DNA of 4,282 nt, from IMG/VR virus record IMGVR_UViG_2585427751_000006, positions 1 to 4,282 of that record. One strand, given 5' to 3'. Within the stretch, counting starts at the first letter, position 1; every line of letters begins with the position of its first letter. This document shows, piece after piece, positions 1,679 to 2,570 of the stretch. The DNA comes from a virus (taxonomy: Duplodnaviria > Heunggongvirae > Uroviricota > Caudoviricetes). The notes below the pieces were generated by a model. The model searched no databases. It was not told the origin of the DNA and saw only the letters and a program-made list of their open reading frames with translations. The position numbers and the translations under genes are program-made.

Positions 1679-1879
1679 ATGTATCGAAACATACGGTGCC
1701 GACACTGCAACAAGTTACTGGCACGGGCCAGTTTCAGTTATCTGGAAGTAAAATGTCCGCGCTGTAAAACCCTCAATCAAATCACATCTCCGAGCGCCAC
1801 AGAGCACCCCACATACACAAGGAAATCCTGTCGTGGGGAACAGAAAACAAGTTACATCCCGTATCATCAGCACGCCTGA
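1679..1879 (+). CDS. com: Com-like zinc-finger translational activator (phage Mu Com family), 66 aa
   Basis: ATG at 1679 with AGGAGG (1663-1668) 10 nt upstream. Protein [34 protein letters not shown]... has Cys at 7, 10, 26 and 29 (CxxC-N15-CxxC). It shares the IRC.xCNKLL / SF / CPRCK / EHPT pattern with Mu Com as I recall that sequence. Its 3' end overlaps the next ORF by 47 nt, as com overlaps mom in Mu. Confidence 0.8.
1807..1838 (+). promoter_or_regulatory. putative translation-inhibitory stem-loop sequestering the mom SD and GTG start codon
   Basis: CCCCAC (1807-1812) can pair with GTGGGG (1833-1838), and the latter includes the GTG start at 1833-1835. The enclosed loop carries the SD AAGGAAA (1820-1826), which can itself pair with TCCTGT (1826-1831) in a smaller hairpin. 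No folding energy was computed. Confidence 0.3.
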
Positions 1880-2570
1880 ACTTATTCTCTATAACGACAA
1901 TATCGTCGGTTATGGCTCCCGTGAGTTACGGGTTGAGACAATAAGTTGCTGGCTGGCCCGACTGGTCATCGTCAATAAACATTACAGCCACCGTTTCGTA
2001 AATAACTCCTACCTTCATCTGGGTATATTTTCAGAACGAGAGCTGGTTGGCGTAATGCAATGGGGTTATGCCCTTAATCCAAACAGTGGAGCGCGCGTCG
2101 TAACCGGTACGCAGAACCGCGAATATATGGAGCTTAACCGGTTATGGCTGCATGACTGTATGCCGAGAAACTCCGAATCAAGGGCCATCAGTTACGCACT
2201 CAAACTTATCAGACAGCTTTATCCGCAGGTACAGTGGGTTCAGTCGTTTGCAGATGAGCGTTGTGGCTGTCTTGGTGTCGTGTATCAGGCAAGCAATTTT
2301 GATTATGTAGGCAGCCATGAATCAACATTCTATGAACTTGATGGCGAGTGGTATCACGAGATTTGCAGGAATGCCATTAAACGAGGCGGACAACGAGGTG
2401 AACATCTGAGGGCTAATATCGACAGAGCCAGTGTTCATAAGTTCCGACAGTTTCGTTACATCCGGTTTCTGAACAAGAGGGCCAGAAAACGCCTCAACAT
2501 AAAGCTATTCAAAGTCCAGCCTTACCCAAAACCCCAAACAGTTAAAACTGGTTTGAAAGAGAGTGAATGA
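1833..2570 (+). CDS. mom: Mom-like DNA-modification enzyme (acyltransferase-fold adenine-modifying protein), 245 aa
   Basis: 738-nt ORF starting at GTG 1833, with no in-frame ATG until far downstream; SD AAGGA 7 nt upstream. It lies immediately downstream of and overlapping a Com homologue, and its size is close to Mu Mom. The call rests mainly on this arrangement; I cannot confirm Mom motifs from memory. Confidence 0.75.

Follow-up and report, generated by a model that had tools for sequence, protein, structure and literature searches.

The DNA analysed here, a stretch of 4,282 nucleotides to which we refer as the window, very probably carries at positions 1–2698 the right end of a Mu-like transposable prophage of Escherichia coli, of the Sp18 type, which entered the host gene yaeF at its 3' end by transposition. 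The com and mom genes found within it form a known module, and the prophage family to which they belong has been described before; the sole new fact is the use of yaeF as an insertion site. The window is the whole of a 4282-bp draft contig (JOQJ01000096.1, assembly GCA_000714025.1) and the phage context is thus missing for technical reasons; at window position 1 the contig ends inside a DUF6645 gene, and no transposase or structural genes are present on it. From the complete relatives described below we infer that the remainder of the prophage is present in the source genome. The features of the window are collected in Table 1.

Table 1. Features of the 4,282-nucleotide window, with strand and the basis of each assignment.
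Feature	Positions	Strand	Properties and basis
DUF6645 gene, 3' end (684 aa in complete prophages)	1–210	+	FORC_069 RefSeq annotation; Pfam PF20350 on the fragment
DUF1378 small phage protein	355–537	+	PF07125, 1.2e-32; phrog_494; RefSeq CDS at the same place
DUF826 small phage protein	573–827	+	PF05696, 3.9e-15; phrog_311, 1e-28
Terminator-like hairpin, 3' of the DUF826 gene	834–859	.	Terminator scan
66-aa hypothetical ORF	903–1103	+	RefSeq CDS WP_001388991.1 at the same place in FORC_069
Truncated phage gene, phrog_26524	1265–1564	-	phrog_26524, 1.3e-43; RefSeq partial pseudogene
9-bp inverted repeat AATCGATCG-N7-CGATCGATT	1611–1635	.	Two Dam (GATC) sites, at 1615 and 1628
com, putative zinc-ribbon translational activator of mom	1679–1879	+	ATG start, 66 aa; PF10122; alignment with Mu Com
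Predicted RNA hairpin CCCCAC...GUGGGG	1807–1838	+	Folding of window and Mu RNA
mom, predicted tRNA(Gly)-dependent adenine N6 aminoacyltransferase (GNAT fold with HTH-like insertion)	1833–2570	+	GTG start, 245 aa
13-nt inverted repeat ending in a T-run (GAAAAGCGCCGAT...ATCGGCGTTTTTC)	2601–2647	+	Repeat search
Three direct copies of a 16-nt motif (GTATCAAA...GC)	2617–2689	+	Within the last 82 nt of the element
Prophage right terminus ...GCGCTATA	2691–2698	+	Junction between 2698 and 2699
yaeF without its last 25 codons	2699–3445	-	NF008552 YaeF, 7.8e-145, only profile positions 1–250 of 274; K-12 comparison
proS, 3' part (prolyl-tRNA synthetase), host core gene	3499–4282	-	K-12 order yaeF-proS; Pfam domains

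The assignment to a Mu-like prophage comes from comparison with a set of 5426 complete E. coli genomes. In one piece the window is present in none of them (0/5426); seven genomes match positions 1–2700 at 99.9% in a single place and the yaeF–proS remainder in another. The whole of 1–2698 is found at 99.9% in strains FORC_069, NCCP15648, and 102651, and in FORC_069, from which it differs by three mismatches, it forms the last 2.7 kb of a prophage of about 39 kb that splits the fimbrial usher gene elfC. The FORC_069 prophage encodes a repressor-like protein, a ner-like helix-turn-helix protein, a Mu transposase, an AAA ATPase (B), Gam, and an activator of the Mor/C family, and further a lysozyme, spanins, portal, protease, a Mu gpT major head protein, tail sheath, tube, tape measure, and baseplate. 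Next in order are an invertible tail-fibre segment, a serine recombinase, DUF6645, DUF1378, DUF826, two small ORFs, com, and mom. The same architecture is seen in E. coli O157:H7 H2495, where the prophage lies in a transaldolase-family gene, and in strain 102651, where it lies in the lateral-flagellar gene motA; transposase A, ATPase B, the repressor and ner genes, and head and contractile-tail genes are present in every complete relative examined.

The order of genes also accounts for what the window lacks. In Mu the gin invertase gene adjoins com–mom, but in these prophages a 3.6-kb DUF6645–DUF1378–DUF826 block without counterpart in Mu intervenes between the gin homologue and com, and it is because of this block that the recombinase and tail-fibre genes fall outside the window, being located in the complete relatives about 2 kb past the point that matches the contig edge. 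The two genes themselves are the same as in Mu (AF083977, in which Mu_52 is Com and Mu_53 is Mom), in the same order, and are likewise the last before the right end.

A named relative is annotated as 'prophage Sp18, Mu-like phage' in E. coli O157:H7 Sakai, and has been reported to be Mu-like and apparently intact (PMC2669165). Window positions 1294–2698 are 96.7% identical to the right end of Sp18, with an identical terminus, although 1–1293 is too diverged from it to be aligned by megablast. The order invertase, DUF6645, DUF1378, DUF826, com, mom is shared with Sp18 and its relatives. The window differs from Sp18 in having the additional 66-aa ORF and a truncated homologue of ECs_4996, and in its insertion site, which is yaeF here and sorM in Sakai; it is known that the sites occupied by Mu-like prophages in O157 differ from strain to strain (PMC7430833). 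A megablast search of a phage collection with positions 211–2600 returned only a 553-bp match, to Mu-like DNA that two Stx phages carry as an insertion, and the Sp18-type phage is without a free-phage entry in the collection searched. A feature that RefSeq labels 'tRNA-OTHER' inside the prophage was not found by ARAGORN.

The DNA upstream of com belongs to the same element. The small genes at 355–537 and 573–827 and the fragment at 1265–1564 are colinear with Mu-like prophages; the last of these is present in O157 prophages as an intact form of 154 aa, the homologue being ECs_4996, and the 66-aa ORF at 903–1103 has no match in Pfam or PHROG. The only Rfam hit in a scan of the window was a chance-level match to Esr41 at 216–298, scoring 22 bits against a threshold of 102 bits. 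Another reading of the left part, following the K-12 order nlpE-yaeF-proS, took 1–210 as the end of nlpE and 211–2587 as an island between nlpE and yaeF, and was excluded, since 1–210 is DUF6645 and identity with K-12 begins only at 2699.

A base-by-base comparison places the end of the prophage within yaeF. Identity with the FORC_069 prophage runs to position 2700, and identity with K-12 yaeF begins at 2699. The terminal sequence ...GCGCTATA is identical in five genomes, namely the present one, FORC_069, H2495, 102651, and Sakai, in which the host flanks are unrelated. K-12 yaeF has 274 codons; here its reading frame continues into the prophage end as far as 2588 to give a chimeric ORF of 285 aa. 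The sequence GTATCAAA occurs three times in the window, all at the terminus, a number reached in none of 200 shuffled sequences, and the complete prophages have its reverse complement, TTTGATACC, at their left ends. These 16-nt repeats are probably the transposase-binding sites of the right end (attR), to judge from their placement at the ends. The inverted repeat at 2601–2647 may be the mom terminator.

The preliminary description of this DNA had presented com and mom as a pair 'without visible Mu context', lying downstream of an AT-rich, 'ORF-poor' region with small 'unrelated' ORFs and converging on yaeF. The AT-richness is real (35% GC at 1351–1650), but the remainder of this picture gives way to another: positions 1–2698 match the right end of complete Mu-like prophages with three mismatches, the upstream ORFs are the DUF1378 and DUF826 genes and the phrog_26524 fragment found in those prophages, and the prophage end at 2698 interrupts yaeF, of which the last 25 codons are gone.

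The ends of these prophages depart from those of Mu. The element terminus and the DNA that follows mom are unrelated to Mu attR, and alignment of the DNA 3' of mom with Mu attR gave no meaningful similarity. In Mu the target duplication is 5 bp and the ends read ...CA-3'. A 5-bp duplication was tried on four insertions of the relatives and fits none, whereas a duplication of 4 bp fits all four of the insertions analysed, and the target duplication of Sp18-type phages thus appears to be 4 bp and their terminus to read ...TA-3'. For the present insertion the duplicated sequence is predicted to be TTCT (2699–2702), and the left junction would then consist of the 3' end of K-12 yaeF, ...ACTGCGTTTCT, followed by TGTAACCAGGTGAATCATTTGATACC (or TATAACC...).

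The contig that makes up the window is shared by three sister assemblies. When the chimeric YaeF was used as a query it returned only three short sister contigs, each ending in or near the DUF6645 gene; the sister contigs break within 76 nt of the same place, and one of them extends the DUF6645 gene by 76 nt. An alternative to an insertion of the entire phage is that the source genome keeps only a remnant of the right end, from the DUF6645 fragment through mom, the rest having been lost by deletion or by an IS rearrangement, so that com and mom are orphaned and non-mobile. The breakage of this contig and of two sister contigs in or near the DUF6645 gene is what an IS insertion or rearrangement would also produce, but the region of the break is about 80% identical to multi-copy lambdoid esterase/DUF1378 genes, a common reason for assemblies to break. 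Similarly, some 20 of the 226 genomes with a full com–mom end have less than 80% coverage of a 22.7-kb prophage late region, although these include diverged but complete prophages, one of them at 77%. The 2.7 kb has only three mismatches to intact prophages and all of its ORFs are intact, which favours a recent insertion over an old, decaying remnant. We therefore consider a remnant unlikely. A lineage in which the right-end fragment sits alone in yaeF, with an intact and regulated com–mom retained without the phage, we regard as improbable; were it to exist, com–mom on a right end of this kind would mark the beginning of a path to an adenine-hypermodification cassette owned by the host. We accordingly favor a complete Sp18-type prophage, of which the window contains the right end.

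The product of com has the organization expected of a Com protein. Its cysteines are arranged as C7-x2-C10 and C26-x2-C29 with 15 residues between the pairs, and it contains both the IRCxxCNKLL and the CPRCK blocks. It matches Pfam PF10122 (Zn_ribbon_Com) with an E-value of 2e-12 and 46.8 bits against a cut-off of 22.9, and PHROG 13819 ('gpCom') at 5e-13, such that a four-cysteine zinc ribbon and an above-cut-off profile match are both present. Relative to Mu Com it is 44% identical and four residues longer, and all four cysteines and the motifs that flank them are invariant; relative to ECs_4997 of Sp18 it is identical at 63 of 66 positions. A Shine-Dalgarno sequence, AGGAGG, precedes com at 1663–1668. 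The gene lies directly 5' of mom and overlaps it over 47 nt (1833–1879), an arrangement that is also that of Mu_52 and Mu_53.

The relationship of mom to its Mu counterpart is closer. Its product matches Pfam PF25680 ('Mom') over the full length of the profile (positions 1–202 of 202) at E=2.4e-77, PHROG 1384 at 1.7e-83, and the solved structure of Mu Mom (PDB 8bv8) at 1e-123. With Com and Mom profile matches this strong, neither gene is a chance ORF. The protein is 80% identical to Mu Mom, with two extra N-terminal residues and a 12-aa C-terminal tail, and the GUG start of the gene is at the homologous position. Structure-guided mutagenesis of Mu Mom has shown R111, S124, D149, R151, H58, Y59, W48, Y159, W181, and Y28 to be essential or important, and Mom activity depends on an HTH-like insertion in the GNAT fold (PMC13219725). 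All ten of these residues (Y28, W48, H58, Y59, R111, S124, D149, R151, Y159, and W181) are conserved here, so that the tested catalytic, dimer, and insertion residues are all kept. The residue numbers are those of the 241-aa numbering of PMC13219725, with a +10 numbering offset that was checked by residue identity, and in window numbering the conserved residues include W40, H50, Y51, R103, S116, D141, R143, Y151, and W173. The HTH-like insertion (residues ~175–209) aligns without gaps and is identical to Mu at 29 of 35 positions. Mom is identical to ECs_4998 of Sakai at 242 of 245 positions, and the same Mom accession, WP_000528247.1, is found in FORC_069 and 102651. RefSeq names the two products 'Com family...' and 'Mom family adenine methylcarbamoylation protein' or 'tRNA(Gly)-dependent adenine aminoacyltransferase Mom'.

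The gene calls of the preliminary description are thus borne out. It had proposed a Com-type zinc-finger protein of 66 aa with a CxxC-N15-CxxC arrangement, overlapping by 47 nt a 245-aa ORF with the position and size of Mom. The PF10122 and gpCom matches and the alignment of the cysteines with those of Mu Com agree with the first of these, the coordinates confirm the overlap, and the full-length PF25680 match, the identity to Mu Mom, and the match to 8bv8 settle the third; the functions that it expected of the two proteins also appear correct as judged by sequence comparison.

Whether the pair is functional is a separate consideration, and Com and Mom could in principle be inactive homologues, carried as decaying prophage cargo. 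The truncation of the neighboring gene at 1265–1564 and the 12-aa C-terminal extension relative to Mu Mom would be compatible with decay, but the com and mom ORFs are both full length, the ten tested Mom residues and the four Com cysteines are conserved, and Mom is nearly invariant across many genomes, as exemplified by its similarity to the Sakai protein. We find inactivity of the pair distinctly improbable and prefer the interpretation that the prophage end carries a working com–mom module.

In Mu, transcription from Pmom requires C and is gated by Dam and OxyR, and translation of mom requires Com (PMC3378877), and sequences reminiscent of both levels of control are present in the window. 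The spacing of 13 nt between the two GATC sites of the inverted repeat at 1611–1635 is as in Mu, and the repeat matches the surroundings of two of the three GATC sites upstream of Pmom. There are, however, two such sites here rather than three, and they lie about 30 nt nearer to com. By analogy with Mu, this palindrome would presumably have a role in Dam/OxyR control (PMC3378877). The C-binding sequence of Mu (TTATGCCCCAATAA) is absent, and a sigma-70 promoter scan upstream of com found no promoter, which is what a promoter dependent on an activator would be expected to give. In the complete relatives the gene directly upstream of the lysozyme and lysis genes specifies a C homologue that is 40% identical to Mu C as against 27% to Mor. 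An 8-mer comparison of the regions upstream of com and lys revealed no shared activator box.

At the level of translation, the predicted hairpin at 1807–1838 pairs the mom GUG start codon (1833–1835) and the GG of the mom Shine-Dalgarno sequence (1821–1822). The same CCCAC/GUGGG stem is predicted over the mom start codon in Mu, and the hairpin would correspond to the translation-inhibition structure of Mu. We note that the z-scores of the hairpin are only -1.0 to -1.8, not significantly above shuffled sequences, and that its arms are identical to those of Mu and hence give no covariation.

From these similarities we infer that a Mu-type com–mom cascade operates here, the cascade itself being borrowed from Mu and its counterpart in the window consisting only of sequence features. 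During late lytic growth a C-type activator would switch on a weak promoter upstream of com, and at the Dam sites near this promoter OxyR would, as in Mu, block transcription unless the DNA is methylated. Com would be translated first and would bind the mRNA just upstream of the hairpin, opening it so that the mom Shine-Dalgarno sequence and GUG codon are freed and mom can be translated. Such tight control of mom would be needed because Mom is toxic to the host, and mistimed Mom is known to be toxic to E. coli (PMC7261163, PMC3378877). Mu Mom transfers glycine from Gly-tRNA(Gly) to the N6 of adenine in double-stranded DNA within a loose SASNY context, and the adduct gives rise to N6-carbamoylmethyl-dA, which blocks many restriction enzymes (PMC13219725). 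The protein encoded here would be expected to do likewise, acting as a GNAT-fold dimer on double-stranded phage DNA, with the adduct rearranging to N6-carbamoylmethyl-adenine and the modification shielding progeny DNA against many restriction enzymes.

Among the 5426 complete E. coli genomes, 233 contain a 1139-bp segment with the promoter region, com, mom, and the terminus, and in 226 of these the match extends over at least 80% of the query; the 22.7-kb prophage late region is covered to at least 80% in 206 genomes. The host genes next to the com–mom segment are unrelated, among them yfcC, terB, icmH/dotU, flgL, and an alcohol dehydrogenase gene. Of the two explanations offered in the preliminary description, a diverged transposable-prophage end and a stand-alone, possibly domesticated, cassette, the terminus and the relatives uphold the first, and the junction and the variable host sites speak against the second. 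A domesticated com–mom hypermodification cassette serving the host genome, for which the only argument is that the 4.3-kb window has no Mu genes, is scarcely tenable, given that the 2.7 kb around the pair are colinear with a prophage end, stop at a terminus with repeats, and interrupt a host gene, that the flanking host genes vary by genome so that there is no fixed chromosomal locus as expected of a domesticated gene, and that Mom expression is toxic to E. coli (PMC7261163, PMC3378877).

The correct label for this DNA is thus the right end of an Sp18-type Mu-like prophage disrupting yaeF, and not an orphan modification cassette. Its significance beyond correct annotation is small, although it illustrates how short draft contigs can make the ends of prophages resemble isolated islands beside core genes. 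The 4-bp duplication and the non-CA terminus of Sp18-type phages may be of interest to transposition specialists. The anti-restriction module of Mu, the chemistry of which was reportedly solved only in 2026, is present in about 4% of complete E. coli genomes, and STEC strains account for many of these.

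The Sp18-type prophages differ from Mu at their termini. Mu makes a 5-bp target duplication and has TG...CA ends, whereas the four Sp18-type insertions in FORC_069, H2495, 102651 and Sakai are flanked by an apparent 4-bp duplication (TTAG, GTCT, CCCC and TAAA), with prophage ends of the form 5'-TG(or TA)TAACC...GCGCTATA-3'. The TTAG duplication was compared with the empty elfC site of K-12, where FORC_069 carries its insertion. A 5-bp duplication fits none of the four insertions. For the insertion in the window, the predicted target duplication is TTCT.

At this insertion the prophage has generated a chimeric 285-aa ORF (window 2588-3445, minus strand), in which yaeF, encoding a C92 permuted papain-like enzyme, lacks its last 25 codons and gains 36 prophage-derived codons. 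The chimeric ORF is common to three sister assemblies, and the disrupted yaeF is therefore carried by a lineage.

Coordinates of prophage features and of the junctions read (L numbers denote stretches of the named E. coli genomes)
Feature	Coordinates	Strand	Remarks
Junctions read	window 2691-2702; FORC_069 L007 5070-5090 and L001 22690-22710; H2495 L009; 102651 L010; Sakai L012 5215-5235 and L013 160-180		
Block between gin-like invertase and com	window 1-830; FORC_069 L001 18156-20827		DUF6645 protein (684 aa); DUF1378; DUF826
Variant region of window	828-1564		contains extra 66-aa ORF and truncated phrog_26524 gene
'tRNA-OTHER'	FORC_069 L001 1390-1469	-	flanked by head-morphogenesis and virion-morphogenesis genes

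Sakai Sp18 is 96.7% identical to the window over 1294-2698, but 1-1293 is too diverged for megablast. The additional ORF in the window's variant (903-1103) gave no family match, and the minus-strand phrog_26524 gene encodes 99 aa, compared with 154 aa for ECs_4996 of Sakai. An Rfam match to the EHEC sRNA Esr41 at 216-298 (minus strand) scores only 22 bits against a gathering score of 102 bits (E=0.54) and is most likely due to chance; it overlaps a terminator-like hairpin 3' of the DUF6645 gene.

Two annotations deserve comment. The com product (1679-1879) is labelled 'Com family DNA-binding transcriptional regulator' in RefSeq and 'transcriptional regulator' in Sakai, which is misleading because Com of Mu is an RNA-binding translational activator. 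RefSeq also places a minus-strand 'tRNA-OTHER' in all three complete prophages examined, and ARAGORN finds no tRNA at that site; in another genome there is an 86% match to a tRNA-Tyr.

Sp18-type prophages also differ from Mu in having the ~3.6-kb DUF6645-DUF1378-DUF826 block, which separates the gin-like invertase from com. The 3' part of the block shares ~80% identity with SASA-family (NanS-p-type) esterase and DUF1378 genes of lambdoid and Stx prophages, a likeness that is the likely cause of draft-contig breaks at this point and that suggests that Mu-like and lambdoid phages have swapped modules. Window 1084-1636 has a 93% match to two Stx-converting phage records, LC727881.1 (36879-37434; H26) and LC727895.1 (43672-44227; H27), both of which label the matched stretch 'region of the inserted Bacteriophage Mu-like phage', and thus Mu-like phages of this type insert into Stx prophages too.
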